Translations under genes and position numbers: made by a program
Shown here: piece after piece, positions 6,744 to 63,526 of the stretch
How the letters are laid out: each line of letters begins with the position of its first letter
Numbering within the stretch: the first letter of the stretch is position 1
IMG/VR virus record: IMGVR_UViG_3300021197_000608
Source of the DNA: an uncultured virus (IMG/VR IMGVR_UViG_3300021197_000608)
Lineage: Duplodnaviria; Heunggongvirae; Uroviricota; Caudoviricetes
Reading direction: 5' to 3' (one strand)
DNA length: 64,000 bases
Notes under the pieces: generated by a model
Told to the model about the DNA's origin: nothing
Database searches by the model: none
The model's input: the letters and a program-made list of their open reading frames with translations, nothing else

Positions 6744-7354
6744 ACTCTCTCTCCTTATTTATTTTCATTATATAATATTATACCACCAATAATCATTGCT
6801 GTCAACCCAAAAAACATAACTATTAGCATTTCACCAAAAGTATTTGCATACTCTACACAAGCACCATCACAGTCATTTGCTGAACCAGCGACTGCCATAA
6901 TACCACCAATAGCCAATACTGCACCAATTATATTCCACATGTTCATTCTCCCTCAATCATAAGTTATTTGTGCTGCATAGTCAATCTTATCAAAGATTGC
7001 ATCCAACTCTTTAAGTTTTTCTTTGCACTTCATTATTGCAAAACCATTTCCAGGCGTTTTCTTTTTCTTCTTTTCTAGACTTTTTAACATATCCGAAAAG
7101 AAATACCATTCTTCCTGTAATTTAGTAATAGGATCTACCATAATTTAACTCCATTCTCATGTGCAGCTTGCATTTCAACAATCTCTGCCTGTTGCATCCA
7201 AAATTCGTTTTCGTCCATGACGATAACATCACGTTCACATTCATTCAACACCATCTGATGTTCACACGCATTGCCGTAGCATTCTTCCTCAGCAATAACA
7301 TTTCCATTCTCAATCAAAACAAACATACCGAATCACCTCTCTCATTACCCTTAT

Positions 7355-8871: not shown

Positions 8872-9105
8872 TACTAAACTCCTTCCATTTCACAAAGTGC
8901 ATCACTAATTAAACCACGAATACTAACTTGACTCTCGTCAACCTCAATACCACAACTCTGTGCAGTATCTAAAATCTGACGAGCGCAACAACTAATGTCA
9001 GAAGTACCAATTTCTTCTGCATCACCAAACATCCACTCTACTTCTTCTTGGACGATATCTTCTAATGTTGTCATATGATTCTCTCTTTCTCTAACTTACA
9101 TATAC

Positions 9106-9184
9106 AAGCTACCATTGTTTTCATAACAAGTCAAGCGATTTTTAGAAAAAAGCCAAAAAAAAAGCCCTGTAAAAACAGGACTTT
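9106..9184 (-). promoter_or_regulatory. early promoter cassette (palindrome, A-tracts, promoter with spacer palindrome)
   Basis: TTGACT-17-TAGCTT; TTGTT-N5-AACAA at 9115-9129; inverted repeat at 9161-9184. Confidence 0.75.
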
Positions 9185-9215
9185 AGAGTAAATCTGGGGG
9201 GTTTATTGTATTTTT

Positions 9216-9881
9216 TTATCTTTTTTTCTTGGCAAGTTCAGAATTAATCCATCTTTTTGCAATGTGATTCGTTACTTTTTTCTTAACTAACATCATACAT
9301 CGTTTCCAGACTTTATTGAATACATCCTCACCAGCATCATTATTGTCTACAATAATCATACCACTACTACCAAATAGACTTTGGAATTTACCGATGTTCT
9401 TTTGAACACCTTTCCACATTTCCTGTACTTGTTTCTCAGGCAATGTACGAGAACGCATTCTATTACGTTCTTGTGCAGTATCCAATGAGGTATTCACAAA
9501 TATCATATACGTTTCATATCCAATTTTTTTAAGTCCTTGAACTTGACTTGCAATTTTATCATAATCTTTACCAGTACCGTCAATGATAAGTCCTAGTCGG
9601 CCTTGCAAGAAGTTTCCTTGCATACGTTTAGTGGTTGCTTTTGCTTTAAGACGAATCTCTTGTCCTTTGTCAGAGAAAATATCTTCTGGGGAAGCTTCTA
9701 ATCCAGCATCTTTCAACATCTTTTCATAGATATCGTCAGAGTTCACAACTTTCATTCCTAATCCACCAGTTGTTCTGCGAACAACATAAGACTTACCAGA
9801 GCCAGGCCCTCCAGCTAGAAATATTGCTTTAAATATGTTGGGATCGTATACTCCCTCTTGTAATTCGTTGAATGTTTTCAT
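9216..9881 (-). CDS. P-loop kinase (zeta toxin/PNK-like) with CTS-like N-terminus
   Basis: AGGPGSGKS Walker A, NSDD, IIDGT, RNxxR; N-terminus MKTFNELQE. Confidence 0.8.
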   Translation of the reverse strand: MKTFNELQEGVYDPNIFKAIFLAGGPGSGKSYVVRRTTGGLGMKVVNSDDIYEKMLKDAGLEASPEDIFSDKGQEIRLKAKATTKRMQGNFLQGRLGLIIDGTGKDYDKIASQVQGLKKIGYETYMIFVNTSLDTAQERNRMRSRTLPEKQVQEMWKGVQKNIGKFQSLFGSSGMIIVDNNDAGEDVFNKVWKRCMMLVKKKVTNHIAKRWINSELAKKKR

Positions 9882-10090
9882 GTTGTAGTCCTAACAACTC
9901 CATAGTTCTTTTTTTATACATTTCCTCATAGTATTTAGTCTCCTTATCGTTTATAACCTCTACCCTTCTTGTTGGTGTTCTTTGAAAGTTCATTTTTCGT
10001 AGTCGGTTTTTGAGTTTGGATGTCATGTCTTGCCTCGTTAAGTTAATGGTTAAATCATAACAAAGTGAGTTGTTTTTTTTGGCCCTCCCT

Positions 10091-11524
10091 CTAGAAAATT
10101 ATCTCGCCAGGGTCTGCATCACCTCTTGGAATAAGTTCATCAGCTGAACTACCACCATCAGTATGAATAACACCCTTAGACGGATATTTGGTTTGAACTG
10201 TATCTCTTACACAATCCATAAGAATCTCATGTTTGTATAATCCTTCACCTCTTTTAAATGAGTGGTGCAATTTAGATACAAGGTATTTGCCTGTTAATGT
10301 CTGGTCATCCTCATCGTTGAGTTTATCTTTGATGACAACACCGATAAGATCACCAGCCTGTAGTGTAGTATTACCAGACACACTAAGTCTTAATGAAACA
10401 GCAGAGTTCAAAGAAGCAAAACGAGACTTTCTTCTTTGCAACCATTTGTCTGTTCCCATATAATCATATGTTTCTGTGTATGCTGGATTGAACAATCCAT
10501 CTGGAATATCTCTATCTATTGTTTGTAGATATACAGTTGCATCTGGATACTCTGTAATCTTCTTATTGTAGTCATCAAGTAACTCAGATACAGCAGGGCC
10601 CTTTTCAGAACCATATCTATTAAACTGGTCTACATGAACATCTCTATCAAAATCCTCTAGATAATCATAGTCGTATTCTTTGTAGTCTTTATTAAAAATA
10701 TCAAGTAGATATAGTTTGGATGCATACATTCCAGAACGTCTACTTGCCAGAGTATTTGTTGTCGAAACAACATCATAGTCTAAAATGTTCTGAAGTAGCA
10801 AATCTGGACGGCCCCTAATTTCTTCTTCATTTGCAGTAAGTTCACGATACACTAATCGTGGGTTCTTTCTGTCCATCATACTATCTAGAGTTCTGAAGAA
10901 GTATCCCTTTACAGTTTCATAGAATAGAAATGTTGGAGCATAGTCATATTCATTTGAAGTACAACGTCTTGCAAGAGCATTGATGAACTGAAAAGGTCGC
11001 ATATTAGGTGCAACTAATTTAAATTTGTTTGATGTCTCTTCATAGTAAAACTCCTTCTTTGAGTTTAACAATTCAGTGTCACGCAAAATATTTTTGATAA
11101 TTTCAGCTGATGGTTCACCGCTAAATGACTGAACCACTCTAATGTTATTGTTTCTCACTAATTCAGCTGTGGTGAATGATAAACTAAATGCAACTGTTTT
11201 GTCGTTAACATTTACTTTACTATTGATTTTATAAATGTACAGTGGTTGTTCTGTAAAGTTGATAACTATATTTCTGTCATCAGTGTCATCTACGTTTGGT
11301 GTTGATAGTTTGAGTTTTAGTTTTTCTTGTCCACATATACGAGCGTTACCAATAACATCATTTGTATCAGCAAATGATATATCACCAGAGATGGAGTTTT
11401 GAAAGATATCTTCGTAAATATCTACTGAAGCTACAAGGTCAATTAAGTCTAATTCTAAACCACCAACAGTAAGTAGTTTACATTCTTCAATAATATATTC
11501 ACCAGCATACTGTATATCTGCCAT
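10091..11524 (-). CDS. baseplate hub protein (gp27-like)
   Basis: IYEDIFQNSISG, FLFYET, GNTTLQAGD and TGKYLVSKLHH motifs; follows gp48-gp53. Confidence 0.6.
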   Translation of the reverse strand: MADIQYAGEYIIEECKLLTVGGLELDLIDLVASVDIYEDIFQNSISGDISFADTNDVIGNARICGQEKLKLKLSTPNVDDTDDRNIVINFTEQPLYIYKINSKVNVNDKTVAFSLSFTTAELVRNNNIRVVQSFSGEPSAEIIKNILRDTELLNSKKEFYYEETSNKFKLVAPNMRPFQFINALARRCTSNEYDYAPTFLFYETVKGYFFRTLDSMMDRKNPRLVYRELTANEEEIRGRPDLLLQNILDYDVVSTTNTLASRRSGMYASKLYLLDIFNKDYKEYDYDYLEDFDRDVHVDQFNRYGSEKGPAVSELLDDYNKKITEYPDATVYLQTIDRDIPDGLFNPAYTETYDYMGTDKWLQRRKSRFASLNSAVSLRLSVSGNTTLQAGDLIGVVIKDKLNDEDDQTLTGKYLVSKLHHSFKRGEGLYKHEILMDCVRDTVQTKYPSKGVIHTDGGSSADELIPRGDADPGEIIF

Positions 11525-12058: not shown

Positions 12059-12919
12059 TTAGAATCCTATCGCAACTTTTTCTTTTGTTACAATATCAAG
12101 TTCTTTAAATGATAAAGTTAATTGAGTTTCTACTGGTTGGTGGTCTTTAAAGAACTGTGGACGATCCCCACCAAATTTTACATCTACTCCTTCCAATGCA
12201 CACTCACCAATTCTGTGTAGGTGAACATTTGGATGGTATGTAATATTGAATGTAGATGGGATTACCATTGTTCTACCAGAACCAGAAGAACCTTCAAATT
12301 CAGGCATTGAGTGGTATCGAAATAGAGTGACAATCTCTTCTATTTCTCGTGCTTCATCTGATGTTTTTGGTAATAGTCTAAATGTGTATTGAAAAGAACG
12401 TCTATCAATACCCTCAAACTTCATCTCTGTTCTGTTATTTGTAATCTTACCATCAATAATTTGTGATGCAGCCAGAGCGCCTGGAGCAATTGTTGCTTCT
12501 AAAACATTACCAAGTGCTTTCTTACCTTCTTCGCCTGCATTATCCAACAATTTCTTTACTTCAAATCCTGCTCCTGAGATACCTTTAGCACCAGCTAACG
12601 CACCAGCAACTAGAAGTCCAATCTCTGCTTCACCATATGATGCTTTATGACTAAGTTCTATTTGAGATGGCATATACAAACAAATAGATGAACCAAGTTT
12701 TTTTGTTGGTGCTCTAGGAACAGACATAGTACTAAATTCATCTGATCTACCTAATGGTTCTGTAGAGTATGCAGTTGAACCAAATTGTATTTTAGATTTT
12801 TGCTGAACATTAATATCAAATTGCACCCAATACTGTGCTTGTTCTGATGTTAGATTAGATGGATACTTTAGGATAGGTTTACTAGCCTGTCCTGATGTTA
12901 AATTGTTTAATACTGCCAT
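12059..12919 (-). CDS. 48: baseplate tail tube cap gp48
   Basis: LKYP, LYMP, FEGIDRRSF.F.L.PK...E and LSFKE motifs. Confidence 0.85.
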   Translation of the reverse strand: MAVLNNLTSGQASKPILKYPSNLTSEQAQYWVQFDINVQQKSKIQFGSTAYSTEPLGRSDEFSTMSVPRAPTKKLGSSICLYMPSQIELSHKASYGEAEIGLLVAGALAGAKGISGAGFEVKKLLDNAGEEGKKALGNVLEATIAPGALAASQIIDGKITNNRTEMKFEGIDRRSFQYTFRLLPKTSDEAREIEEIVTLFRYHSMPEFEGSSGSGRTMVIPSTFNITYHPNVHLHRIGECALEGVDVKFGGDRPQFFKDHQPVETQLTLSFKELDIVTKEKVAIGF

Positions 12920-12947
12920 ATCTAAATAGTCCTATACATTGTGAAAG

Positions 12948-12955
12948 TATTTATA
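12948..12955 (-). promoter_or_regulatory. T4-type late promoter
   Basis: TATAAATA upstream of gp48; same octamer on the minus strand at 19268, 21386, 25749, 38214 and 58734. Confidence 0.75.
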
Positions 12956-12960
12956 TAGAC

Positions 12961-13392
12961 ATGGCATACAGAGGCAGATATATTCCATCTAAACCAAGAA
13001 AATATAAGGGTGATCCTGACAAAATTATTTATCGTAGTTTGTGGGAACGTAAGTTTATGGTTTACTGTGACAGAAATGACGCTATCCTTGAATGGGGCAG
13101 TGAAGAAATCATTATACCATATGTATCTCCCCTAGATGGTAGAAGACATCGTTACTTCCCAGATTTCTATGTAAAAGTTAAACAAAAAGACAATTCTATC
13201 AAAAAACTATTGATAGAAGTAAAACCTAAAGCACAATGCGGCCCACCCAAAACACCAAAACGTAAATCACCAAGATTTGTTCAAGAAGTTCGTACATGGG
13301 GTGTAAATAGAGCAAAGTGGGAAGCAGCGATAGAATGGTGCAACGATAGACAGATGGAATTTAAAATACTAACTGAAGACCATCTTGGATAA
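12961..13392 (+). CDS. 4: head completion nuclease gp4
   Basis: MAYRGRY..P.KYKGD, YRSLWE, HRYFPDF, IEVKP; start reassigned to 12961. Confidence 0.9.
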   Translation: MAYRGRYIPSKPRKYKGDPDKIIYRSLWERKFMVYCDRNDAILEWGSEEIIIPYVSPLDGRRHRYFPDFYVKVKQKDNSIKKLLIEVKPKAQCGPPKTPKRKSPRFVQEVRTWGVNRAKWEAAIEWCNDRQMEFKILTEDHLG

Positions 13393-36912: not shown

Positions 36913-37383
36913 TTAAAATTTTGTGAGAAATTGTGCAATTCTACCCACAAAAGGTAGCAACATTACCGCCATAAGCAGATTCATACCAGTATGTGCCATA
37001 GCGATTCGCAATGTGTCTCCCTTGGGCATCCCATCAGAAACGAACAATCCAGCCAACCAAATAGTTCCAGTTGTACCTATGTTTGCACCAAGCACTGCTG
37101 CAATCGCAGCTGGTAGTGGTAATGCACCAGAAGCGACTAGTGCAATGATTGCTGTTGTTGAGAGTGATGATGATTGCCAGAGTAGTGTCATAACAATACC
37201 ACCAAAGAACATATAAATTGGATTACCTAAAAAGAATGCAAGGTGTTCCATATTCCCCATCGACTTCATACCGCCAGAGAATGTTTTAAGACCAATATAA
37301 AAAATCACCAGACCCACGAGGGCGGTGATTATAGGGTTTCCTAAATCCATTTGTTTTACCTTTTTCCAAAGTTCAGTTGACAT
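36913..37383 (-). CDS. Na+/Pi cotransporter family (SLC34/NptA) protein with a single repeat
   Basis: QSSS signature and GANIGTT; 156 aa, hydrophobic. Confidence 0.85.
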   Translation of the reverse strand: MSTELWKKVKQMDLGNPIITALVGLVIFYIGLKTFSGGMKSMGNMEHLAFFLGNPIYMFFGGIVMTLLWQSSSLSTTAIIALVASGALPLPAAIAAVLGANIGTTGTIWLAGLFVSDGMPKGDTLRIAMAHTGMNLLMAVMLLPFVGRIAQFLTKF

Positions 37384-46043: not shown

Positions 46044-47042
46044 TTAGCCATTTCTAGCCTCCTTTATGTATTTTCCATAGTTATCTTTATTCATAACTAG
46101 GAACATTTTTTCTGCAAGTAAGTTACCAGCAACATAATCTGCAAGGTAATGAAACCCTGCTTTCACCCTACCTAGTCCACACTCTTTTGCGGCTTTTGTG
46201 ATACCGTCTGTGTGTTCTGGAAACTTTGCAGAAACGTATAGTCCAACCAACATTGATTGTGTTGCATGTCCACTAGGATATGATCTTGTTTTGTTAGTTG
46301 TACTAGACATTGGTTTGATAGACGGATCAACTTCGTGTGGTCTATCAAGGTTAAATTGTTCTTTAAAATACCCAATGGTGGGTTTGGCCTGCATAATAAT
46401 ATCTCTCATTTCAGTATCGTGAAATATCAAACCATGTTCTTCACAATACTTTTCAATAGCGTAAAATGAATTCTCATCATGGTCACGAATGGACTGTTCA
46501 TCTTCTGGAGTTCTATTCGCAATAATCTGTTTTACCTTATCTGCCTCTTTCTGTAAATCAGTAGGAGGTTCAGGTAAAGTAATCCGTTCATATAATTTTT
46601 CAGGAAAAAATTCAAACGCTTCAAAACTTAATTTGGGGTTTGATGTTGCAAAGTTAGTTTTTCTCATAACTGTCTTTGCAATTAAATCTAGTTCCTTTCC
46701 ATCCCACTTTAGGACGAAAGGCATATTGATATCTGTCTGCATATCATTTAAGACTGCTTCGGCGTCTGGCCCCAGTTTCGCAATCTTTTTACCAAACTTC
46801 TTGTAACTCTGCTTAAACATCCGAATAAGCTCCGCCACAGTAATCTGTTTCTTGTTTCGTGCGTCATTGACCCTATCTAAAAAATGTCTGGTAAATTCTA
46901 CGTCAATACCAGCGGCAGCATATAATCTATCTGCATATTTTTCTACACCGTTTAAATCGTTCTTTGAAAGTTTTGCACCACCAGTTTGTGCATTCAAATC
47001 AGCAATTGGATGTACTTTGGCAAACTGATTAAAGGTTTTCAT
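46044..47042 (-). CDS. CTS-like N-terminus + unknown domain + PAP2/acid phosphatase domain
   Basis: MKTFNQF; KxxxxxxRP, SYPSGH and GRxxAGFHYxxD PAP2 motifs. Confidence 0.8.
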   Translation of the reverse strand: MKTFNQFAKVHPIADLNAQTGGAKLSKNDLNGVEKYADRLYAAAGIDVEFTRHFLDRVNDARNKKQITVAELIRMFKQSYKKFGKKIAKLGPDAEAVLNDMQTDINMPFVLKWDGKELDLIAKTVMRKTNFATSNPKLSFEAFEFFPEKLYERITLPEPPTDLQKEADKVKQIIANRTPEDEQSIRDHDENSFYAIEKYCEEHGLIFHDTEMRDIIMQAKPTIGYFKEQFNLDRPHEVDPSIKPMSSTTNKTRSYPSGHATQSMLVGLYVSAKFPEHTDGITKAAKECGLGRVKAGFHYLADYVAGNLLAEKMFLVMNKDNYGKYIKEARNG

Positions 47043-51572: not shown

Positions 51573-53318
51573 CTGGTTTCTCCTGTGAGTTTAGTTTATT
51601 AATTGTTTCTGTTGCCTTTGCAATCTGCAACTGCAACTGTGCGATACGAGTTTTCTTCTTATCATCTCGTGATTGATCTACCGCCTTGGCAGAATCTGGT
51701 TTGTCCATTTTCTTTTCTGGTTCTTCTTTGATATCTACAGGTGATACTGCCATATCTCCGAAAGCCATTGTAACTTTTCCATCTCTTTTGTATAGATATC
51801 TTTTTGCACTAGTAGGACTATCTTTTCTTGCCATGGTAATCTTTTCTACTCTACCCTTGTTTACCATGTTCTTAGACTTTACAATATACTCAATAAAATC
51901 TTTACCCTTCTCTATTGAAGAGTCGTGTTTGATTTTAACAGTAGAACCCTTCTTCAGTTTATCAAAGACTCTAAGCAACTTAGGATCGTTCATCTTCATG
52001 CCTTCAATTAAAGCATCTGTAATTTCAACTTCTTCAGCCATACCCATCTCTAGAGGTCTACCGATCATCTTTGATGCTCTGTTAGTTGCAATACCACGTT
52101 TTAGTTTGACAACCTTACCTTTTTCTTTTCTAAGGTTATTTTTTGATAAACTAATTGCATCTTTCTCATCAGATGCAAATGCAAGAACATCTCCACTTTT
52201 AACTGATACGACAGCAAACTTATTAGTAATTTCATCAAGTTCANNNNNNNNNNNNNNNNNNNNNNNNNNNNNNNNNNNNNNNNNNNNNNNNNNNNNNNNN
52301 NNNNNNNNNNNNNNNNNNNNNNNNNNNNNNNNNNNNNNNNNNNTTCATCAAGTTCAACTTCTTCTCTCATTCCAAGTTCTTTTCTACGTTTATTGATCTG
52401 ATCAATAAGTTTTTTCTGTGCAGGCGAACCAGGCATAGTTTTCATTGCTTTGGTGTAGAGTTTCATTAACTCAGCATCCATAGAAATATCTTTCATTCTA
52501 CCTTCATCAAGATTTTCATTTGCCTTTCGCAAAGCAGCTTCAACCTCTGGATACTTTGATAATCCATCTCTAATTTTCTCAATAGCCTTAACTGCACCTG
52601 TCATATTACCACCCTTATAACGAGGGTCATTTGCAATACCTATTGCCATTTTAACTTCTTTGGAAGAAGGTCTTCTTGACATAAACTTTTCATCAACTTC
52701 AACTTCTTCAGATTTTCCTTTATGTTGTTTCCACAAGTCTGCATCACCAGTGGTTCTTGTCTTACCACCAGAAATAAAAGAGTTAACTCTTGCATGGGCC
52801 CACTGTACAGGTGTTGTGCCTGGTCGATGTCCACCTTTCCATGCGGCAACACCTCTATCAAATACCTTCTTCAAAATACTCAGTGAAATGCCAGAAGCGT
52901 CTGCCTTCTTTTTTAAAGACTTATCTGCATCCTCATCAAGTTCAACTTCTTCTTTGTACATATTTAGCTCGAATTTTTTATCATCAAGATTTGCAACTTG
53001 TACTTGGATTGCACCACCTTTACCCTTTAGTCTATAACTATTAGTTTTACCTTTAGATGGTTTCTTGGGGCCTGTTGCAACCTTGTCATCAATCTCTTTT
53101 GGATCAATTGTAATACCATGAAGTTTCTTTGCCATGGCATATGCGTGTTGCATTGCAGATGAAAAATCTTTGTGGTAGAGGTCATATTTTGCCTCATCAA
53201 GTTCAACACTCTCACTGACAACACATTCACATGGTTTATCTCCACATTTTGGACATGGTGCATATAGAGTTCTCATCTCTATCAGAATATCTTTCATACT
53301 TCTTGAATATCTAGTCAT
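51565..53318 (-). CDS. modular polyprotein with EEVELDE linkers, spanning the N gap
   Basis: frame after the gap resumes ELDEITNKF... and runs into ORF 51565-52068; the ORF-track split comes from the arbitrary gap length. Confidence 0.75.
52231..53207 (-). repeat. dispersed GAAGAAGTTGAACTTGATGA linker repeat
   Basis: 20-bp identical copies at 52345-52364 and 52933-52952; partial copies at 53194-53207, 52231-52243 and about 52690. Confidence 0.8.
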
Positions 53319-53586
53319 TTGTTTCTTCCCAAATTTTTACGACAAGTTGCCCTGTTCCTTTTATTATTCTATGATACTCCATTTTGGGTATCTTGTAAAT
53401 CTTTCCTTTTACTAATTCTTCTGGTAACTTATTATCCAATTGTATCTTCCAATTGTCACCATCTAAAACTGTAACTTCTCTAGTACGTCTATCTCTGTGC
53501 CATACCAGTTCTTCACTTTCTATATCATCTTCAAACTGTCTGATAATAACTCCCTTATCATAAGTTTGAGTATAGGGTTTTACCAA
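53311..53586 (-). CDS. cupin-like small protein
   Basis: ELVWHRD..R...IPKMEYHRIIKG. Confidence 0.6.
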   Translation of the reverse strand: MVKPYTQTYDKGVIIRQFEDDIESEELVWHRDRRTREVTVLDGDNWKIQLDNKLPEELVKGKIYKIPKMEYHRIIKGTGQLVVKIWEETND

Positions 53587-55712
53587 AAGAAATTACCCCC
53601 ACCACTCAAACCAAGTTGTTTTGCATATCTTGGAAGATTACAACTCCAATATCCTGCCTTGGTTCTATCTTTTTGTTGGTCGCAATTATGTCTTGCAGCA
53701 AAACTCTTTCGTGCTTCTTTATCACTTAACTTAACTTTCAGTCCACTTGTATCACCAAATGTAACCTTCTTGACATTACCTGTCTTTGGATCTTTTACAT
53801 ATACATAGTATTTCTTTGGCCCACCGACTTTAGGTTTATTTAATTCTACATCTTTTTCTTCAAACATCATAGGACAATCTAATGCAACATGCTGTCCTTG
53901 ATACATATCAAACCTACCTAAGTCACCTTCCATAAGTTGTTTATCAAATCCTACTGGTTCATAAACACCAACTTGATATGCATCTCTTTTCTCTTGAAAG
54001 AATTCAAAATATTTTTCTGAACCCACACGATAAATGTTAGACTCAATCAAACTTGAGGTTTCACATTCATTACAGCAATCAGGTGTACCACAATTGGTAT
54101 GTTCTGAAAACTTAATTACTTTCTGTCCTGGCGTCATATCTTGGTGTAACTCCCTTCGAGCATTTGTTCCGATTTCACGAGCATCTTCATACTTATCTGA
54201 TTTTCGTTTTGTACCATCAGAACGAGGAATCAATCCCTTTGCCTTTAGGTGTGTAATATCACCAAATCCAGCTTTCCCTGCCTTGTATCTTTTCATTGCA
54301 TCTTGTGTATCAGGTGCTTTTTCTTTATACAAATCTGGAAACATCTTTTTCATTTTATTTGTGTACTTTGATGGTTTAGTTTTTGCAGACTTATCGCCTG
54401 GCGCTGGTTTGTATGCACTGTCATCACTGTCATCTTTTGCAGAACCTTTTGCAAAATGTCTTGCACGAGCCTGTTTGGTAGACTTTGCCATCTTATCACC
54501 CTCAGCATCTTTTGCATAATACTTTGCTGGTTGTGTACCTTTTCGTTTTCCAATATCTTTATCTTCTTTTTCTGCAACAAACTCTTCTTTTGGAACACAG
54601 TTCGGCACCATCTTACCGTTCTTCTTTTTCATTCCAACTTGTTTATGAGTATCCCAACAGGGATTCTCTTCTGTGAGTTTAGGATGAGCCTTTGTAAATG
54701 CATTCCCAAGTTCTTTACCATCAATACCTATAAGTGTTCTTGCAATTTGTTGTGCGTAATAACTAATACCGTGTTTTAGTTTTCCACCTGATTCTTTATG
54801 TTTTCTATCAATAACGGATTTCATAATTTCAACTGCTCTATCATAACCTTTTTTCTTTGTAGTTTTGGCCATGACACGTTTGATAAGTTGTCCAGTTGTC
54901 ATCTCTTGGATTTCATACAACCACTTCTTATGTGTATCTCCATTCTCTTCTGCAAAGGTAATATAGTTTGTTCCTCTACGAACAATCTTTCCACAGACAC
55001 CAGAATATGAATCAGTGACTTCTTCACCAATGGTTAGTATCTCACCACGAATATATAAATCTCTGAAGATTTCTTCTTCAGTTATAGTATCTTCTACTGG
55101 AATAAACGACTCACGAATACCCATGTATCTACGAACATCTTTAAATAAAGTCATTCCTTGTTTGAAATTTGTTGGTAATCCAAGTTTGAACTGGTCAAAA
55201 TCATTCGTAGATGCAGCAGCTCTCATCTTTGACGCAGACATTCCAGTAACACCTTCTGCATCTGGATCACGTTCACCAGCAGATATAACTTCGATATTAT
55301 CAAAACCATAATAACCATGTCTTGCTTCAACACCATTATACTTGTTCAGTAGACCTTCAAACTCTGCAACTCTATCAGAACCAGCAACCATGACAATTGA
55401 TTTGTGTCCTTTGTTATAAAGGATCATTGCAATCTCAAATACATTTCTTGCTTTTGATACTAGAAGATTTCTTGAATGTTTTGGGAACATCTTTTTCATG
55501 TATGCAATTTTCTTAGAATACGGTAATGGGTCTTTCTTTGGGTTTTCAGAATGTGATGCAAAAATATAATATGGGGCGCCAGCATTTTTCTTTGCAACTG
55601 CCGCTGTTTTGTCTAAAAGTTTCTCATGTCCTATCGTTGGTGGGTTAAATCTACCGAATGTAAATACGGCAGTGTCACCACGAGCTTCGCTGATGTCTTT
55701 AAATGTTTTCAT
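53580..55712 (-). CDS. HxGH-class nucleotidyltransferase (cytidylyltransferase/NMNAT-like) with a C-terminal string of small basic modules
   Basis: MKTFKDISE; FGRFNPPTIGH, GSDR, SASKMR; modules CW..VPNCVP and RKSFAARHNC. Confidence 0.85.
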   Translation of the reverse strand: MKTFKDISEARGDTAVFTFGRFNPPTIGHEKLLDKTAAVAKKNAGAPYYIFASHSENPKKDPLPYSKKIAYMKKMFPKHSRNLLVSKARNVFEIAMILYNKGHKSIVMVAGSDRVAEFEGLLNKYNGVEARHGYYGFDNIEVISAGERDPDAEGVTGMSASKMRAAASTNDFDQFKLGLPTNFKQGMTLFKDVRRYMGIRESFIPVEDTITEEEIFRDLYIRGEILTIGEEVTDSYSGVCGKIVRRGTNYITFAEENGDTHKKWLYEIQEMTTGQLIKRVMAKTTKKKGYDRAVEIMKSVIDRKHKESGGKLKHGISYYAQQIARTLIGIDGKELGNAFTKAHPKLTEENPCWDTHKQVGMKKKNGKMVPNCVPKEEFVAEKEDKDIGKRKGTQPAKYYAKDAEGDKMAKSTKQARARHFAKGSAKDDSDDSAYKPAPGDKSAKTKPSKYTNKMKKMFPDLYKEKAPDTQDAMKRYKAGKAGFGDITHLKAKGLIPRSDGTKRKSDKYEDAREIGTNARRELHQDMTPGQKVIKFSEHTNCGTPDCCNECETSSLIESNIYRVGSEKYFEFFQEKRDAYQVGVYEPVGFDKQLMEGDLGRFDMYQGQHVALDCPMMFEEKDVELNKPKVGGPKKYYVYVKDPKTGNVKKVTFGDTSGLKVKLSDKEARKSFAARHNCDQQKDRTKAGYWSCNLPRYAKQLGLSGGGNFFW

Positions 55713-56101
55713 TCTTTAGCACCCTGTTTCGCTTTTTGCAGTCTTTCTATTTCTGACTTTTTTACTTTCGGTAATAATTTTGTAGCAATCTTTTTAAGTG
55801 CAGCACCTTTTTTCGCTAAAATTTTATTATCAATCATTTGTCTTTGTACAAGAGGCAAGTTTGCATATGCATTTGCATCTAGACCAGTAAACTTCTTAAT
55901 GATTAAAAACTTTGCAGCTTTGTTCGCTCTCTGTTTAAGTTTTGAATCACTTGCCTTTTTTAGTTTAGCTCTTGCAATCTTTGCTTTGACAGCAGAACTT
56001 TTCATCATTCGTGACATTCTCATTCCAATTTTTTTTCTGTCAAAAGTGCTCATAGCCTTTCTTTCAGAAAGTTCAAAAAGTAATTCATCGAATGTCTTCA
56101 T
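55709..56101 (-). CDS. very basic protein with CTS-like N-terminus
   Basis: MKTFDELLFELSE followed by a Lys/Arg-rich helical body. Confidence 0.7.
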   Translation of the reverse strand: MKTFDELLFELSERKAMSTFDRKKIGMRMSRMMKSSAVKAKIARAKLKKASDSKLKQRANKAAKFLIIKKFTGLDANAYANLPLVQRQMIDNKILAKKGAALKKIATKLLPKVKKSEIERLQKAKQGAKE

Positions 56102-57345
56102 TTATCCCATGCCTTTATCGCAGTAAAGTTATTAAAACTGAATTCCATTCTATCAACTAATTTAACTGCATTACCAGAAATTCTATCAATAGCAACATAT
56201 CCTTCTGGGTTTACAACTTTAAACCCATTTGCAGTTTTAATAAAAGTTCCAATGCTCTTTACTGTATTTAGTTTCTTTACCACACCCATTTTCGCTTCTA
56301 CGATGTGATTTTGAAATGTAACCATATTACTCAAATTTACTGTATGTTTCTTTAGTTCACGAACTATTTCTTTTTTCTTATTCTCTACTTCTTTTTTCTT
56401 AACAGGAGTTTTTAGTTTGTCAACCTTTTTATCAAATACACTCTCTACCCAAGGAATGTAACCTTGTGCATGTTTCTTTGGATTAGTAACCTTCTGTCCT
56501 TTTCTTACAAGACTATTATTATATGTCTTGAGAGATGCACCAGAAAAATCACCAGTAAAACTATTTTGAATAGTTAAAAACTGATCTAATAATCCAGAGT
56601 TAATTTTTTGAAAGATAGAACCAGCCATAGATAAATGTTTAGTAACCACTGCTGTTTCTTTTGCAGTCATTGTTGCAGAACCAGATGTATCTTTGTATGT
56701 TGCATCATCCATCCAAACTGTAGATGGATTGTTAAGTCCTTTTATATTTGCACCAAATGATGCTTTCATATCTTGTAGTTCGTCACCTTTGTATGTTGTG
56801 TGCCATACAACACCAATCTTGGCGTTTTTAATCTTTCTACCTAAGTCCGAATTTACATCTACAGCATATACAATAGTATTGGGTTGAAATGTGTAATACT
56901 TCTTTCCTTCTATATCTGTAGTGTCTACATCACCATCAGTAAACATCAAGTCTCCTTGAAGTACATCTGTAATACCCAACTTAGAAAACTCTGCAAGTGC
57001 AACTTTAAATTTACTATTTAATGCACCAGATAATTTATCTGCATCTATCTCTGTATTTGACTTATAGAGTTTTGGTTCGATATTAAAAACAGATTTCTTT
57101 GCAACAAAGAACTTACCATCTTTTGGATCAATACCAGCAAATATTGCAGGCGCACCATCCCACTTGACAGTCATGTTTACAGAACTACGACTTGAACCAG
57201 CCAACATGTCACGCAAAGAACGAACAAAGTTGATTGCAGCTCGTCCACCAGAAACACCAAAATTAAGAATTTCATCCTCAATGTGTTCTAGGTGTAAATT
57301 CTTACCACCTTTATCTTCTGTAATAAATGAACTAAACTTTATCAT
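56098..57345 (-). CDS. covalent nucleotidyltransferase (RNA/DNA ligase-like) with CTS-like N-terminus
   Basis: MIKFSSFITE; KWDG (motif I), QGDLMF (III), EGYVA (IV), VKLVDR (V-like). Confidence 0.6.
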   Translation of the reverse strand: MIKFSSFITEDKGGKNLHLEHIEDEILNFGVSGGRAAINFVRSLRDMLAGSSRSSVNMTVKWDGAPAIFAGIDPKDGKFFVAKKSVFNIEPKLYKSNTEIDADKLSGALNSKFKVALAEFSKLGITDVLQGDLMFTDGDVDTTDIEGKKYYTFQPNTIVYAVDVNSDLGRKIKNAKIGVVWHTTYKGDELQDMKASFGANIKGLNNPSTVWMDDATYKDTSGSATMTAKETAVVTKHLSMAGSIFQKINSGLLDQFLTIQNSFTGDFSGASLKTYNNSLVRKGQKVTNPKKHAQGYIPWVESVFDKKVDKLKTPVKKKEVENKKKEIVRELKKHTVNLSNMVTFQNHIVEAKMGVVKKLNTVKSIGTFIKTANGFKVVNPEGYVAIDRISGNAVKLVDRMEFSFNNFTAIKAWDK

Positions 57346-58694
57346 TTTGTGAGTCCGTTATATTTGATTGCAAGTCCTGTCGGAAATTGTCCTAGTTTCT
57401 TTTTGCCTGCGTGTCCAGATTTGTTTGAACGAATTGACATTTTCATAGTCAAAGTTTCTGTACCAGATTTAAGTTCAATGAACCAATCTTGTTTAGACGT
57501 TTTTGATGAATATGATTTTACAAACTTTACTTGTGGTAGGAATACCCCTACTTCATCTCTGTCTGTAACTTCTTCGTAATCTGTACCAATTGCCTTTATA
57601 ACAACAGTTGGAACTTCTGGTGCATCTCTTAATACTTCTGTTTGTATATACTTTAAAGTTTTATCTTTACTTTTATTAAATAAATCAACAACACCTTTTC
57701 GCATAATTTCTAACATTGCATCATAATCTGATTCATATGCCTTGTTGTTTTTCTTATCGTAATCTTTTAGAATAGTTTCGGTTTTTCTTCTATCGGGGCT
57801 TCTACCATTTGCACCACCGTCAAATCCATCAAGTGCAGGCATACCTTTGATTTTAGAATATACTTGTGCATATGCAGACGCCCGCAATGTTGCCATCATT
57901 CTAGTTTCACCAAATGCAGTAAAAACAGGTCTTACATATGTGTTAAGTTGTGGTTCTGAAGTTTTCTTACCACCAGCTTTTAGACTGACACCAAGAAACT
58001 TTCCATCTGTGTATTGAATAAACATATCGCCAGGGTGTTTACTTGGAACACCTGACGGTTTTGCACGATATCCCCAATAAACTAATTTTATTGGTTTATC
58101 TTTATTTGAATCATTTATATATCTAGTAATACCAATAGCGTTATTCATCTTCTCTTCAAACTTAGAGGATGTATCTGCTTTGTTTATTGTCTCTTGTCCA
58201 GCAACTGTATCTTTTGAGTTAACACACTTTAGTTTGTTAACTTCAAGGTCTAATAGATATTTGTGAAAATTTTCTGGGTTGGTGGGTACATAACCCTTTT
58301 CAAAAGCTATACAAGGGAATAGTTCTGTAATACTAGAATTAAGTGTGGTTTCTTGCATTCCACCAGCCATTGGTTTGACATTAATTCTAAACTTTTTATT
58401 GTCGATTATACCGTCAATTGGATCTACACTAGAATTAGATGAACCCAAGTTTGCATCAATACCAGATTGACGCATTCTTCTAAGTATTTCATCTCTATCT
58501 GTCTCTCTATCCTTAGAACGTACCGTATAGACAGTTCTTACGGAAGAACTGGCTTTCGTGTTTATTTCATGGGTAAACCCATCAAAGAAATCTGTAGGAA
58601 GAGTTTCCTCATATAAATCTTGTATTTTCTCTGTTAGAGAAACATTAGATTCGACAAGAGGATTTATCTGACGATAATATTTTTTTATAGACAT
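57342..58694 (-). CDS. restriction-endonuclease-like PD-(D/E)XK protein
   Basis: E..PC helix, PGDMFI..GVSLK; late promoter at 58734. Confidence 0.45.
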   Translation of the reverse strand: MSIKKYYRQINPLVESNVSLTEKIQDLYEETLPTDFFDGFTHEINTKASSSVRTVYTVRSKDRETDRDEILRRMRQSGIDANLGSSNSSVDPIDGIIDNKKFRINVKPMAGGMQETTLNSSITELFPCIAFEKGYVPTNPENFHKYLLDLEVNKLKCVNSKDTVAGQETINKADTSSKFEEKMNNAIGITRYINDSNKDKPIKLVYWGYRAKPSGVPSKHPGDMFIQYTDGKFLGVSLKAGGKKTSEPQLNTYVRPVFTAFGETRMMATLRASAYAQVYSKIKGMPALDGFDGGANGRSPDRRKTETILKDYDKKNNKAYESDYDAMLEIMRKGVVDLFNKSKDKTLKYIQTEVLRDAPEVPTVVIKAIGTDYEEVTDRDEVGVFLPQVKFVKSYSSKTSKQDWFIELKSGTETLTMKMSIRSNKSGHAGKKKLGQFPTGLAIKYNGLTK

Positions 58695-58940
58695 TTAACA
58701 CAGTTTCCATTAGCACAAATAGTTTTCTGATACTATTTATAATAACAAAACTATTCACGAATGTCAATATTACCTTTTAAAAATTTAGGTAAAGGGAACT
58801 CTCCGAATGGTTTACTTGATATTAGATGTTCTGAGAACATTTCAGCATCAACTTTTCTTCTATATGTACGCACAACTTCATTAGTAGGAAATTCAATAAC
58901 TTCCCACTTCTCATTGTTTTTATTTACAAAGTATGTTATT

Positions 58941-61705: not shown

Positions 61706-62115
61706 TAAATGTCACCTTCTTTTCTGTTTTCAGAACGAAACGCTTCAAACCCATCTGGGTATCTCGTTTCTAACTTTTGTATATTAGTATCTATAACATC
61801 CTCAAGAGAAATGCCTAGAGCAATACAAGCTTGTGTAACGTACCATAAAATATCGCCAAGTTCACGTTTCATATGATATTGTGCATCATCATCCATAGGT
61901 TTAGCTTGAAAAATCGACTTCTTAACGATCTCTGCAAACTCGCCTCCCTCAGCACTAATACCAATTGCGGCAGTAAGAATGCGTTCTGGTGAAACACCAA
62001 ACCCATCAATTACATCAAGTGCATCCGAAAATGATTGTGCATCAGAAGATGCATCACTGGTCACTTCGTCAACGAACCTAGTATAATCCAAGAGGAAGTT
62101 TTTATCTATTACCAT
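61705..62115 (-). CDS. mazG: MazG-like NTP pyrophosphohydrolase
   Basis: [25 protein letters not shown]. Confidence 0.88.
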
Positions 62116-63200
62116 TATGATTCTCCAAAAATTGTGTTATGAGTAGTATATACTTTAACAAATGTTGTACACTTTGTCAAGTCTTTTATTCGTCTTGCTC
62201 CAACATATGTGCATGTTGATCTGATGCCCCCCAATATAGAATGCACAGTAGTTCCAATACTTCCTCTGTAGGGAACAATGACTTCTTTACCTTCTGCGGC
62301 TCTGTAGTTTTTAAGTCCACCGAAATGTTTTTCATTTGCAGTCTCCGAGCTCATACCGTAGAACTTAACTCCTACTGGTATTGGATTATCATCTTCCAAT
62401 ATATATTCTCCCCCACCTTCATCATGTCCTGAGAGCATTCCACCGAGCATGACGAAATCTGCACCGCCTCCAAGAGCCTTTGCAATATCTCCTGAGTTTG
62501 TGCAACCACCGTCAGCGATGATATGACCACCCAAACCATGAGCAGCATCAGCACACTCAATAACAGACGATAACTGAGGATACCCAACACCAGTTTGAAT
62601 ACGAGTAGTACACACACTGCCAGGCCCAATACCACACTTAACGATATCTGCTCCATTTAAAATTAACTCCTGTGTCATATCACCAGTAACTACATTGCCT
62701 GCTATGATAACAAGTTCTGGATGATTCAATCTTAGTTGGTAAATAAAGTTACTAAACATTTCAGTATAGCCATTTGCAACATCTACACAGAGATACTTAA
62801 TCGCTCCATCAGTCATTTCATATACATGTCTAAACTTCTTCAAATCTTCATCAGATGTACCAATAGACATAGCAACATTCTGTCTACGATCATATGCAAG
62901 GTCATCTTCTAGACAATGAAAGAATGCAACTAGTTCAGCAAATGTATAAGTCTTTACCAGACATGTAAATATGTTGTGTTTTGCAAGTTCATCTGCAACT
63001 TCAAATGTACCTACACCATCCATGTTTGATGCCATGATAGGGATACCAATATATTCCTTTGGTAATCCCTTACTATCTTTTGCATTTCTAAATTTTGTAC
63101 TACGAAACAAATCTACCTCTTTACGAGATTTGAGTGTTGAACGCTTTGGGCGTATCAACACATTAGAAAAGTCTAGTTTAAAATCTTCTTCGATTTGCAT
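62115..63200 (-). CDS. guaC: GMP reductase
   Basis: KLDF..VLIRPKRSTL.SR, NMD.VGTF, DVANGY, GIGPGSVCTTR, FYGMSS; start reassigned to MQIEEDF. Confidence 0.93.
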   Translation of the reverse strand: MQIEEDFKLDFSNVLIRPKRSTLKSRKEVDLFRSTKFRNAKDSKGLPKEYIGIPIMASNMDGVGTFEVADELAKHNIFTCLVKTYTFAELVAFFHCLEDDLAYDRRQNVAMSIGTSDEDLKKFRHVYEMTDGAIKYLCVDVANGYTEMFSNFIYQLRLNHPELVIIAGNVVTGDMTQELILNGADIVKCGIGPGSVCTTRIQTGVGYPQLSSVIECADAAHGLGGHIIADGGCTNSGDIAKALGGGADFVMLGGMLSGHDEGGGEYILEDDNPIPVGVKFYGMSSETANEKHFGGLKNYRAAEGKEVIVPYRGSIGTTVHSILGGIRSTCTYVGARRIKDLTKCTTFVKVYTTHNTIFGES

Positions 63201-63526
63201 TAGCTTACAAGTCCTTGTAATCCTTTTTGTGGAATCGCTAGTCCACTCGTTTGCGAAACCCATCCATTTGCAATTTCAGTAGCTGTTTCAATCACAAACA
63301 AGACTCCGTTCTTTGCAAACTGAACATTACTCTTTGGTTCTTGGCCGGTCATGCAAATTCCATTTACAAGTCCAACTCCTTTTTCTGTTACTTGAACAAG
63401 TCTTGGTTTATAGATGGTATAATTTACCATATCATCTACCACATATTTCCCAACGACTTCCATACCGTTAGAAAAAACTAATGTTATAATATCATTTTCT
63501 TTCATTTTATTCCTCTTTAGTTCCAT
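63200..63526 (-). CDS. Sm-like small hypothetical protein
   Basis: IITLVFSNGMEVVGK..KPR..TSGL. Confidence 0.5.
   Translation of the reverse strand: MELKRNKMKENDIITLVFSNGMEVVGKYVVDDMVNYTIYKPRLVQVTEKGVGLVNGICMTGQEPKSNVQFAKNGVLFVIETATEIANGWVSQTSGLAIPQKGLQGLVS

Follow-up and report, generated by a model that had tools for sequence, protein, structure and literature searches.

The open reading frame at 56098..57345, on the minus strand of the viral DNA presented above, raises the question of whether it encodes an enzyme that joins or adenylylates polynucleotide ends and, if so, with which partners and at what stage of infection it would act. The window analysed here is the whole stretch of 64,000 nucleotides from this uncultured virus. 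Exact translation of these coordinates yields the 415-aa protein that the first-pass annotation had placed there. The protein matches the Pfam family DUF6267 (PF19782) with 350.7 bits (E 1.6e-104; the gathering score is 27 bits), residues 16-410 aligning to profile positions 1-375 of 376, and DUF6267 matches comprise 2705 clusters at 50% identity (E<=1e-3). Because of the strength of the Pfam match and the number of matching clusters, the gene is taken to be real and, judged from its sequence, is a member of a genuine, abundant phage protein family. A full-text literature search for 'DUF6267' returned no paper, and a ligase assignment could still exist in print; a search for 'cyanophage' with 'RNA ligase' showed no DUF6267-type family in the titles or abstract openings among the matches listed, and one for a phage RNA ligase fused to a cytidylyltransferase gave nothing relevant. 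In the protein atlas, DUF6267 occurs in unnamed viral clusters only. No cellular homologues were evident, a single-protein scan of genome contigs having matched only 5 MAG contigs.

The motifs from which membership of the ligase/capping enzyme superfamily had been proposed are all present in the translated protein, at the places and in the order claimed: motif I, TVKWDG (residues 59-64, 57154..57171), motif III, LQGDLMF (residues 129-135, 56941..56961), motif IV, PEGYVA (residues 380-385, 56191..56208) and motif V, AVKLVDR (residues 393-399, 56149..56169), all on the minus strand. An isolated KxDG string is not rare by chance, so the motif evidence lies in conservation. In an alignment of 78 sequences that are 35-60% identical to the 415-aa query (alignment A1), K61, D63, G64, D132, E381, G382 and K395 are invariant in 78/78 sequences; only 20 columns are invariant, and these ligase-motif residues account for 7 of them. 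Motif III has an Asp (D132) where classic ligases have Glu. K395 is the only Lys of motif V. V397 occupies the +2 place of the second Lys of T4 Rnl1, and R399, after it, is present in 99% of the rows. A candidate motif IIIa, YYTFQPNTIVY (56866..56898, minus strand), includes F153, present in 96% of the rows. Further upstream in the protein is a family-specific motif, HLEHIED (residues 18-24, 57274..57294, minus strand), in which H21 is invariant and H18 and E23 are kept in at least 90% of the rows.

The catalytic set of the Naegleria RNA ligase NgrRnl is given as K170/D172/E227/F248/E312/K326 in the published account (PMC7261155), and by order and spacing K61/D63/D132/F153/E381/K395 correspond to it. 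The interval from D132 to F153 is 21 residues, identical to that from E227 to F248, motif IIIa being assigned by this spacing only, and the interval from E381 to K395 is 14 residues, identical to that from E312 to K326. K61 is predicted to be the lysine that accepts AMP, and D63 a carboxylate of the metal site; D132 and E381 would hold metal as well, roles taken over from the NgrRnl description in the same source (PMC7261155). The full catalytic residue set is also kept in a 303-aa cyanophage variant of DUF6267.

Structure prediction compared with Rnl1 and Rnl2 had been named in the first-pass annotation as a check, and the AlphaFold model of the DUF6267 protein (pLDDT 91.8, pTM 0.88) matches the NTase domain of both. 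In structure searches (VIA), the best match was NgrRnl, with Z 8.3-8.7 over 182-186 residues (8.5 over 183 residues at rmsd 3.7 in the search of 48,161 representative chains), a Z of ~8.5 being in the tool's own 'middling' range. The aligned part of NgrRnl, residues 143-339, covers its entire NTase domain. Among the representative chains, the next matches were to Trl1 (Z 8.0, 7.9 and 7.3), REL1 (7.6) and T4 Rnl2 (7.5 and 7.4). Lower values were obtained for T4 Rnl1 (6.8) and archaeal Rnl (6.6), and lower ones still for DNA ligases (6.4-5.7); in a second VIA look, ligases made up 49 of the 50 entries listed. The superfamily assignment is supported by a predicted structure that fits the ligase NTase domain, together with motifs I, III, IIIa, IV and V in matching order and spacing. 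On its predicted fold, we place the DUF6267 protein in the superfamily of covalent lysine nucleotidyltransferases (polynucleotide ligases), as a highly diverged member that is built like an RNA ligase.

Comparisons by other methods stayed below significance. Foldseek against the PDB gave nothing at E<=1e-3 (best E 0.089), with weak rows for 3jsn, 1b04 and 9a6z at E 0.29-0.35. Searches of PDB sequences with the single protein and with the family profile found no ligase, and weak 'Toxin protein' and eS8 rows in such a search were dismissed as chance or low-complexity matches. When alignment A1 was compared by hhalign with single T4 Rnl2, Rnl1 and gp30 sequences and with a 32-sequence Rnl1 profile, and sliced cores with Rnl1, the probability was <=5%; local alignments at that level placed K61 on the motif I Lys of T4 Rnl1 and E381/K395 on motifs IV/V. 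Among Pfam families, PF09511 (Rnl1/Trl1) gave a below-threshold match in 4/78 members (best E 6.2e-4, 20.1 bits vs a 28.3-bit cutoff) and no match for the 415-aa query itself; PF09414 was not among the best 25 of 82 matched families, and the NAD+-ligase adenylation family (PF01653, including domain Ia) had no match to the query at E<=10. Since the Foldseek and profile comparisons are not significant, homology rests on the fold and the motifs.

In its architecture, the protein resembles in part each of several ligase groups. It is most like Rnl5 (NgrRnl and Deinococcus DraRnl; PDB 5cot, 6vt0-6vtg), the best structural match, in having the NTase domain at the C-terminal end. Unlike NgrRnl, it lacks an N-terminal OB domain, which in NgrRnl holds the ATP gamma-phosphate according to the published account (PMC7261155), and it has both a ~130-residue helical insertion between motifs IIIa and IV and the Asp in motif III; sequence identity to NgrRnl is 12-14%, and no sequence method connects NgrRnl with DUF6267. 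In the model, the insertion covers residues 228-359 (56269..56664, minus strand); it contains the invariant residues N277 and K352 and is shorter in the 303-aa variant. Only ~55 residues precede motif I, consisting of a disordered tag (pLDDT <50 for residues 1-11) and one long helix (22-48), and the chain ends 20 residues after K395, with a single helix (399-408) there and no OB domain. With T4 Rnl1 and Trl1 the protein shares VIA Z values of 6.8-8.0 and the only ligase Pfam family matched by any member, below threshold (PF09511), but it has neither a C-terminal domain after motif V nor the second motif V Lys, and the family-profile hhalign probability is 1-5%. T4 Rnl2 and REL1 match over 175-195 residues (VIA Z 7.2-8.0), starting from Rnl2 residue 3 and model residue 14, although the Rnl2-type C-terminal domain is absent. 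The likeness to T4 gp30 and other ATP-dependent DNA ligases (PF01068) is that of the superfamily fold (VIA Z 5.7-6.7), whereas the OB domain with motif VI, the DNA-binding domain and a sequence match are all missing; an OB domain C-terminal to the NTase domain is described as present in all known DNA ligases (PMC7261155). The same source counts six RNA ligase families of characterised structure, and the predicted architecture appears to fit none of them, nor the DNA ligases (PMC7261155). If the protein is a ligase, the lack of an OB domain together with the helical insertion between IIIa and IV would make this a new ligase architecture.

The surroundings of the gene suggest the partners with which such an enzyme would work. 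Downstream on the same minus strand lie a small, very basic 130-aa protein (55709..56101; phrog_23027) and a 710-aa multidomain protein (53580..55712; Pfam, PHROG and model), the residues 1-205 of which form an HxGH adenylyltransferase domain (55098-55712) and the further domains of which match phrog_4808, phrog_9737 and phrog_7595. These are followed by a coupled 91-aa ORF to which Pfam and PHROG assign no function (53311..53586, minus strand) and a DUF5824-containing protein (52101..53318, minus strand), whose C-terminus is uncertain because its ORF crosses a masked run of N at 52244-52343. The DUF6267 and HxGH genes are linked by ATGA overlaps through the small gene between them and, on this arrangement of start and stop codons, the pair is translationally coupled. 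Of 58 related viral loci, 48 have an HxGH homologue downstream in the same orientation, no more than 450 nt away in 37 cases. Among 30 long DUF6267 relatives, 14 are fusions with an HxGH domain, in which either part may come first; in P0143, DUF5824 is joined to DUF6267 and the HxGH domain. The proposal that the DUF6267 protein works with the nearby HxGH transferase gains support from this coupling, from the synteny in 48/58 loci and from the fusions in either order. By its model, the HxGH domain most resembles PPAT (E 1.3e-5) and NMNAT/NaMNAT, and weak profile matches are to NadR-type NMNAT and PPAT. To our knowledge, there is no precedent for an HxGH enzyme in a ligation or RNA-repair pathway. 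Among the cassette proteins, none was recognised as an enzyme that heals 3' ends, and PADLOC gave no match for the cassette proteins.

A kinase is a further candidate partner. Family and homology searches identify a 221-aa P-loop kinase of the AAA_33/Zeta_toxin type at 9216..9881 on the minus strand of the window. It is 50% identical (E 2e-60) to the kinase domain of a kinase-DUF6267 fusion (P0135), of which it is an orthologue. Its nearest NCBIfam entry is PSTK, with E 1.4e-5, far below the cutoff, and its only PADLOC match is VakA. In HTVC008M the kinase gene lies inside the cassette; of five complete DUF6267-carrying genomes, only two were found to have this kinase. The pairing of ligase and kinase recalls the LIG-KIN arrangement of Trl1 and the partnership of T4 Pnkp with Rnl1, from which it differs in that the kinase is separate or N-terminally fused and no CPD or phosphatase was found. 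The kinase link, like the absent OB domain, the helical insertion and the head-targeting-like N-terminus considered below, goes beyond what the first-pass annotation had described.

The N-termini of these proteins resemble signals for packaging into the phage head. Residues 1-10 of the DUF6267 protein, MIKFSSFITE (57316..57345, minus strand), look by N-terminus comparison like a capsid-targeting sequence, and the basic protein (MKTFDELLFE), the HxGH protein (MKTFKDISEA) and the kinase (MKTFNELQEG) start in a similar manner. In the T4 record, ipI starts MKTFKEF, and ipII and ipIII start MKTYQEFIAE. The likeness extends to the decapeptide of IPI, IPII, IPIII and Alt, which are capsid-targeted, injected cargo of T4. 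The first 10 residues of T4 IPIII suffice for head loading, positions 4 and 7 governing targeting and positions 8 and 10 processing, as reported for T4 (PMC9026906); the DUF6267 protein has F4, F7, I8 and E10 where IPIII has Y4, F7, I8 and E10. Unlike the T4 internal proteins, the cargo here would be enzymes of nucleic-acid or nucleotide chemistry. The tag pattern occurs in 48/119 DUF6267 representatives, vs 3.9% of shuffles and 8/120 Rnl1 controls. It is not universal: in 17/119 representatives the HxEH motif stands right at the start, and in ACG-2014e neither the homologue of the DUF6267 protein nor that of its partner carries a tag. In addition, the T4 late-promoter consensus is matched by TATAAATA at 58734..58741 (minus strand), 40 nt ahead of the start codon that opens the cassette; the window holds 7 such matches vs 5.7 expected, which is no enrichment.

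Published virion proteomes bear on the same question. S-CREM2 particles yielded a cytidylyltransferase together with two neighbouring proteins, and those of three other cyanophages yielded NMNAT-like proteins, with the authors' warning that the signal could be contamination (PMC10665884). Among the virion proteomes consulted, the HxGH partner is listed and the DUF6267 protein is not, the S-CREM2 list having ORF154-156 in and ORF153 out (PMC10665884). Because the ligase-like, basic, HxGH and kinase proteins all start with T4-like capsid-targeting peptides, delivery of the DUF6267 protein and its partners inside the virion is likely, by analogy with T4.

From the observed motifs, their conservation and the predicted fold, we infer chemistry of the following kind. 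K61 would attack the alpha-phosphate of an adenylyl donor, most likely ATP and possibly NAD+ or another ADP-X, to give Lys61-AMP. In this scheme the catalytic metal would be bound by Asp63, Asp132 and Glu381, with Lys395 steadying the transition state and Phe153 in a stacking contact with the adenine. The AMP would then move to a 5'-phosphate end, and attack by a 3'-OH would seal the break. With the observed synteny and fusions, the DUF6267 enzyme would be the core of a translationally coupled cassette whose other members are the HxGH adenylyltransferase and the small basic protein, joined in some phages by a PNK/PSTK-like 5'-kinase. The cassette proteins would be loaded into the head and injected together with the genome, as a kit for healing and sealing ends (or adenylylating them) that would be at work ahead of phage gene expression; packaging of this kind is proposed because of the observed tag-like, T4-like starts and the late-promoter consensus match ahead of the cassette. 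We give an even chance to this reading, in which DUF6267 is a divergent strand-sealing or end-adenylylating ligase at the core of a head-loaded kit delivered with the phage DNA.

Among the viruses of the sea, T4-like cyanophages and pelagiphages rank with the most abundant. In a different explanation, DUF6267 would be the 'missing' intracellular DNA ligase of marine T4-like phages, a substitute for T4 gp30 that seals Okazaki fragments and recombination nicks in the cytoplasm and is not packaged. A review reports g30 homologues as absent from cyanomyoviruses and adds that distant ones may remain unidentified (PMC2984593). In four of five complete DUF6267-carrying genomes there was no match to PF01068 or PF01653, and in none of the five a match to PF09414 or PF09511, so that by these four Pfam families DUF6267 is the only ligase-fold gene in 4/5 related complete genomes. 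The gene adjoins gp41 and UvsX in the window, in ACG-2014e and in HTVC008M, and a tblastn search with one divergent query found DUF6267 in 312 Synechococcus and 60 'Cyanophage' records, vs gp41 in 377 and 61; on these counts the family would be near-core in cyanomyoviruses. This distribution and position favour a replication ligase. However, DLP6 carries a PF01068 ligase (E 2.5e-15) and the cassette together, with the cassette beside ThyX and not the replication genes, which weakens a strict replacement of gp30; moreover, the model has no OB domain, RNA ligases outscore DNA ligases, Okazaki fragment joining needs no 5'-kinase, and the capsid-targeting-like starts and late-promoter match better suit virion cargo than a replisome enzyme. 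We consider a cytoplasmic DNA ligase unlikely. A cytoplasmic RNA (tRNA) repair ligase, analogous to T4 Pnkp plus Rnl1 or to Trl1, would reverse the cuts of host ribotoxins, with the kinase healing the 5'-OH. The closest structures are indeed RNA ligases, Trl1 and Rnl1 included, the only sub-threshold Pfam signal is PF09511, and the kinase is fused or adjacent, with the tRNA-dependent kinase PSTK as its nearest NCBIfam entry (far below the cutoff); phage RNA ligases are also usually accompanied by kinases and accessory nucleotidyltransferases, according to published work (PMC7824862). Such a repair pathway nevertheless sits poorly with a cassette in which no 2',3'-cyclic phosphodiesterase or 3'-phosphatase was recognised, with a kinase in only 2/5 complete genomes, with an HxGH adenylyltransferase partner that has no role in known RNA repair, and with a near-universal conservation in cyanomyoviruses that is unusual for a counter-defence accessory, and it too seems improbable.

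The HxGH partner itself invites the suggestion of a cofactor module, in which it would make an ADP-linked dinucleotide (e.g. NAD+ from NMN, its substrate supplied by the kinase as in NadR) that serves as the adenylyl donor of DUF6267, the mononucleotide being recycled, or would itself adenylylate the 5'-phosphate end that DUF6267 then seals. The closeness of the HxGH model to PPAT/NMNAT and its weak NadR-type NMNAT and PPAT profile matches agree with this, as do fusions in both orders, which are typical of enzymes of consecutive steps, and an N-terminal HLEHxED module that could handle a leaving group other than pyrophosphate; the virion 'cytidyltransferase' has, moreover, been interpreted in print as an NMNAT homologue (PMC10665884). 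Yet neither the NAD+-ligase adenylation family nor its Ia domain matches the protein, the substrate of the HxGH enzyme is not readable from its fold, the best structural matches are ATP-dependent RNA ligases, and the scheme has no experimental precedent, so that we hold it to be quite unlikely. Finally, the protein may not be a polynucleotide ligase at all: with its ligase fold it could instead transfer nucleotides to a protein or small molecule, or it could be an internal head protein that has no catalytic activity and has kept a nucleotide-binding pocket. All sequence-profile tests fell below significance, motifs III and V are atypical, no nucleic-acid-binding flanking domain is recognisable, and the T4 internal proteins are diverse cargo (PMC9026906). 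These points are countered by a catalytic set that is complete and invariant in 78 sequences and kept in the 303-aa variant, by non-helical structural matches that are all ligases among the entries listed, by the very basic small protein and the basic linkers in the cassette, and by the published description of known superfamily members as transferring nucleotide to polynucleotide 5' ends (PMC7261155). We regard a non-ligase function as very unlikely.

The preferred reading, a head-loaded ligase kit, can be taken further, to a proposal that we think doubtful but worth stating: DUF6267 would found a family of OB-less polynucleotide ligases and, with the HxGH enzyme and the PNK-like kinase, form the first virion-delivered ligation or end-adenylylation kit, in which the HxGH enzyme supplies or regenerates the donor or pre-adenylylates the 5' end for sealing or capping. 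If true, the OB-less ligase would explain why marine T4-like phages have long been described as ligase-free. Confirmation would bring a new ligase family and a possible reagent, and a new logic for phage-injected enzymes, for which the tags suggest ready-made delivery. It would also assign a definite role to the 'cytidyltransferase' proteins, which recur in cyanophage virion proteomes.

The gene immediately upstream of DUF6267, also coupled and on the minus strand (57342..58694), encodes a 450-aa protein that matches phrog_2496, a family with no annotated function. It was considered as a conserved member of the cassette and rejected, the five complete genomes having different PHROG families or none there. 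In the protein atlas, this 450-aa protein falls in a restriction-endonuclease-like cluster (score 0.92), which we take as a lead only.

Translation of the minus-strand ORF at 56098–57345 recovered, at exact coordinates, all four ligase-motif strings quoted in the first-pass annotation: in the 415-aa product (P0001), TVKWDG occupies residues 59–64, LQGDLMF 129–135, PEGYVA 380–385 and AVKLVDR 393–399. P0001 matches Pfam DUF6267 over its full length (E 1.6e-104) and belongs also to PHROG 455, of unknown function. Its surroundings are those of a T4-like marine myophage (UvsX, gp41-type helicase, gp32, gp59, RNase H, ribonucleotide reductase, ThyX and baseplate genes), the nearest cultured relative being Methylophilales phage Melnitz, with a DUF6267 homologue 74% identical to P0001. 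DUF6267 is a very large family, with 2705 matching clusters (50% identity, E≤1e-3); all 8000 scored candidates were matches. It looks essentially viral, and a genome scan with patterns from the single protein P0001, which reaches close relatives only, found only five binned MAG contigs with DUF6267. Across 78 DUF6267 sequences (35–60% identity to P0001), 20 alignment columns were invariant, seven of them being the proposed catalytic residues K61, D63, G64, D132, E381, G382 and K395; two other positions came close, R399 (99% of rows) and F153 (96%). Also invariant were an N-terminal HLEHxED motif and two residues inside a helical insertion, N277 and K352. In a 303-aa variant from cyanophage S-RIM12, the middle is much shortened and the catalytic residues are retained.

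Tests of ligase kinship at the level of sequence profiles were weak. The family profile found no ligase among PDB sequences, and hhalign comparisons with T4 Rnl2, Rnl1, gp30 and the Rnl1 family profile gave probabilities of ≤5%. The local alignments that these weak tests did produce keep the expected register: the motif I lysine of Rnl1 pairs with K61, its motif IV glutamate with E381 and its motif V lysine with K395. The only ligase family matched by DUF6267 members was PF09511 (Rnl1/Trl1), by 4 of 78 with a best E of 6.2e-4, below cutoff.

The AlphaFold model of P0001, predicted with confidence (pLDDT 91.8, pTM 0.88; residues 1–11 disordered), consists of a long N-terminal helix (22–48), a β-rich core (56–214 and 366–396) and a helical insertion (228–359), with just one short helix after motif V. 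Foldseek returned no PDB match at E≤1e-3; the top row was an archaeal DNA ligase (0.089), and ligases were frequent among the weak rows. When VIA-align was run exhaustively over 48,161 chains, the Z values were moderate, ‘middling’ by the tool's own grade, and were led by Naegleria gruberi RNA ligase (NgrRnl, 5cot; Z 8.5, rmsd 3.7 over 183 residues) and followed by fungal Trl1 (8.0, 7.9, 7.3), Trypanosoma REL1 (7.6), T4 Rnl2 (7.5, 7.4), T4 Rnl1 (6.8), archaeal Rnl (6.6) and DNA ligases (6.4–5.7). The comparison with Rnl1 and Rnl2 that had been proposed for this protein supports a ligase-like predicted fold. Other rows were mostly small helical proteins matching the insertion; in a second look, ligases made up 49 of the 50 entries listed, and the model covered NgrRnl residues 143–339, the whole NTase domain. 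In BFVD, viral RNA ligases and capping enzymes came after the DUF6267 members, with weak E-values; an entry there named NrdB (H8ZNG8, 728 aa) also aligns to the model.

According to the available text of PMC7261155, the catalytic metal of NgrRnl is bound by D172 of motif I, E227 of motif III and E312 of motif IV; the motif V lysine, K326, touches the α and γ phosphates, and F248 stacks on the adenine. DUF6267 has a counterpart set in K61, D63, D132, E381 and K395, with F153 as the candidate motif IIIa residue by its spacing; the distances from motif IV to V (14 residues) and from III to the candidate IIIa (21 residues) are those of NgrRnl. It differs in having Asp rather than Glu in motif III, in lacking the second lysine of motif V, in lacking an OB domain at either end, in the helical insertion between motifs IIIa and IV, and in the invariant HLEHxED motif. 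The same text describes a C-terminal OB domain in all DNA ligases and repeated origins of RNA ligases by fusion of the NTase domain to differing modules (PMC7261155). On these grounds we assigned DUF6267 to a new architecture within the ligase superfamily, outside Rnl1, Rnl2, Rnl5 and the DNA ligases. Fold matches and invariant motif residues in the right order uphold the proposed membership of the ligase/capping superfamily; for a computational result the fold and catalytic assignment are well supported, and we consider them very probably correct.

The DUF6267 gene lies in a cassette of six ORFs that overlap head to tail (450 aa, DUF6267, 130 aa, 710 aa, 91 aa and 405 aa), with ATGA overlaps at junctions 1–3. 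At the N-terminus of the 710-aa protein is an HxGH nucleotidyltransferase domain, matched by Pfam CTP_transf_like (E 4e-5) and by the PHROG ‘cytidyltransferase’ (E 5e-73); the model (pLDDT 86.6) is nearest to phosphopantetheine adenylyltransferases (E 1.3e-5) and NMN/NaMN adenylyltransferases. In 58 of 80 related viral loci the sequence extends 1500 nt or more past the DUF6267 gene; 48 of the 58 have a same-strand HxGH homologue downstream of it, and in 37 of these the distance is within 450 nt. Of 150 DUF6267 representatives listed, 31 exceeded 450 aa, and 14 of the 30 scanned were fused to the HxGH domain, N- or C-terminal to DUF6267. Coupling, synteny and fusion support the anticipated partnership with the nearby HxGH transferase. 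Three further fusion partners have counterparts in the cassette: DUF5824 in the 405-aa neighbour, PHROG 7595 as the C-terminal domain of the 710-aa protein, and PHROG 23027, to which the 130-aa protein belongs. Another, in the fusion relative P0135, is an AAA_33/Zeta_toxin P-loop kinase. The window encodes a 221-aa kinase (9216–9881) 50% identical to that of P0135 (E 2e-60), and in Pelagibacter phage HTVC008M its homologue is part of the cassette, flanked by the genes for the small protein and the cytidyltransferase. We judge DUF6267 to be strongly linked in function with both the HxGH enzyme and the kinase. The upstream 450-aa protein was rejected as a conserved cassette member, since across five genomes it is assigned either to differing PHROG families or to none.

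PHROG 4808 (‘ribonucleotide reductase alpha subunit’) is a domain of ~85 aa after the cytidyltransferase, as a separate gene (6733–6987 in the ACG-2014e locus, L002) or fused (residues 209–307 of the window's 710-aa protein), and its label looks like annotation carry-over. In DLP6, AAY80_069 (8919–10220 of locus L089), after the cytidyltransferase, is annotated exodeoxyribonuclease VII large subunit, which may be unreliable because it has just weak matches to PHROG families of unknown function. The 405-aa DUF5824 ORF (52101–53318) contains a run of 100 N (52244–52343) through which the listed translation passes, so its C-terminus and gene boundary are uncertain.

The N-termini resemble capsid-targeting sequences. 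In the T4 record ipI starts MKTFKEF and ipII and ipIII start MKTYQEFIAE; in the window we found MIKFSSFITE (DUF6267), MKTFDELLFE (130-aa protein), MKTFKDISEA (710-aa protein), MKTFNELQEG (kinase) and MKTFNQFAKV (PAP2-like ORF). The tag pattern occurred in 48 of 119 DUF6267 representatives of ≤450 aa, as against 3.9% after shuffling the first 30 residues of those proteins and 8 of 120 Rnl1 controls; 17 of the 119 were clearly untagged. The homologues from Melnitz, DLP6 and C48C1 carry the tag, and that of ACG-2014e lacks it. Within the window, 7/119 minus-strand and 0/48 plus-strand ORFs matched, cassette proteins and the kinase accounting for four of the seven. A match to TATAAATA, which we take to be the T4 late-promoter consensus, lies 40 nt upstream of the cassette; this motif is not enriched in the window (7 observed, 5.7 expected). 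For IPIII, the available text of PMC9026906 states that the first ten residues are enough for loading, residues 4 and 7 serving targeting and 8 and 10 processing; DUF6267 has F4, F7, I8 and E10 there. S-CREM2 virions contained the cytidylyltransferase (ORF154, 3 peptides) and the products of the next two ORFs, and NMNAT-like proteins are cited in virions of three other cyanomyoviruses, with the authors' warning of possible contamination (PMC10665884); DUF6267 was not among the S-CREM2 virion proteins listed in the available text of that source. Head packaging of DUF6267 enzymes is plausible in the window's clade, as read from these N-termini. The PAP2 ORF (46044–47042, minus strand, 332 aa; PAP2 phosphatase domain E 3.2e-8) has no E among its first ten residues, and could be another protein targeted to the capsid, or could supply the phosphatase that is missing from an end-healing kit.

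The best single account, to which we give an even chance, is that DUF6267 is a delivered ligase, which would arrive by delivery and would heal and seal ends (or 5′-adenylylate them). A rival is a cytoplasmic substitute for gp30. In five complete DUF6267-bearing genomes (Melnitz-1, ACG-2014e, DLP6, HTVC008M and C48C1), PF01653, PF09414 and PF09511 had no match, and PF01068 DNA ligase matched in DLP6 only (E 2.5e-15). With one divergent tblastn query, DUF6267 was found in 312 Synechococcus-phage and 60 ‘Cyanophage’ records, compared with 377 and 61 for gp41; Synechococcus was not among the best ten organisms listed for T4 gp30 homologues. A review (PMC2984593) reports that g30 homologues are not found in cyanomyoviruses, where distant ones might be unrecognised. 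This ligase complement and spread fit a ‘hidden ligase’. Simple replacement of gp30 is weakened by DLP6, which has both a PF01068 ligase and DUF6267 and whose cassette adjoins ThyX rather than replication genes. The other rivals to a delivered end-sealing enzyme are a tRNA-repair ligase acting in the cytoplasm, a cofactor-coupled (NAD+-like) mechanism, to be set beside the NMN/NaMN adenylyltransferase likeness of the HxGH domain, and a non-ligase role, to be set against the fold and catalytic assignment. Among curated families, PSTK, a tRNA-dependent kinase, comes nearest to the window kinase, though its match (E 1.4e-5) is far below cutoff.

Three minus-strand ORFs adjoin this kinase: an NT5C/HAD-like phosphatase ORF (7700–8197), one of 225 aa (8194–8871) that weakly matches a HEXXH metallohydrolase (TIGR04338, E 2.6e-6), and one of 66 aa (8874–9074) with the tag-like start MTTLEDIVQE. 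The closeness of a HAD phosphatase to a PNK-like kinase is reminiscent of a split Pnkp. Elsewhere in the window, auxiliary-metabolism-type genes on the minus strand (5044–5472, 36913–37383 and 62115–63263) include a plastocyanin/azurin-like copper protein, a Na/Pi-cotransporter fragment-like ORF and an IMPDH/GMP-reductase family gene adjoining MazG. A 165-aa ORF with a TnsA-like endonuclease N-terminal domain (12895–13392, plus strand; E 1.7e-24) sits among baseplate genes of the opposite strand and may be a homing or mobile endonuclease. A 269-aa minus-strand ORF at 3826–4635 matches the Mom protein family (E 1.3e-48), which suggests a putative DNA-modification function in this marine phage.
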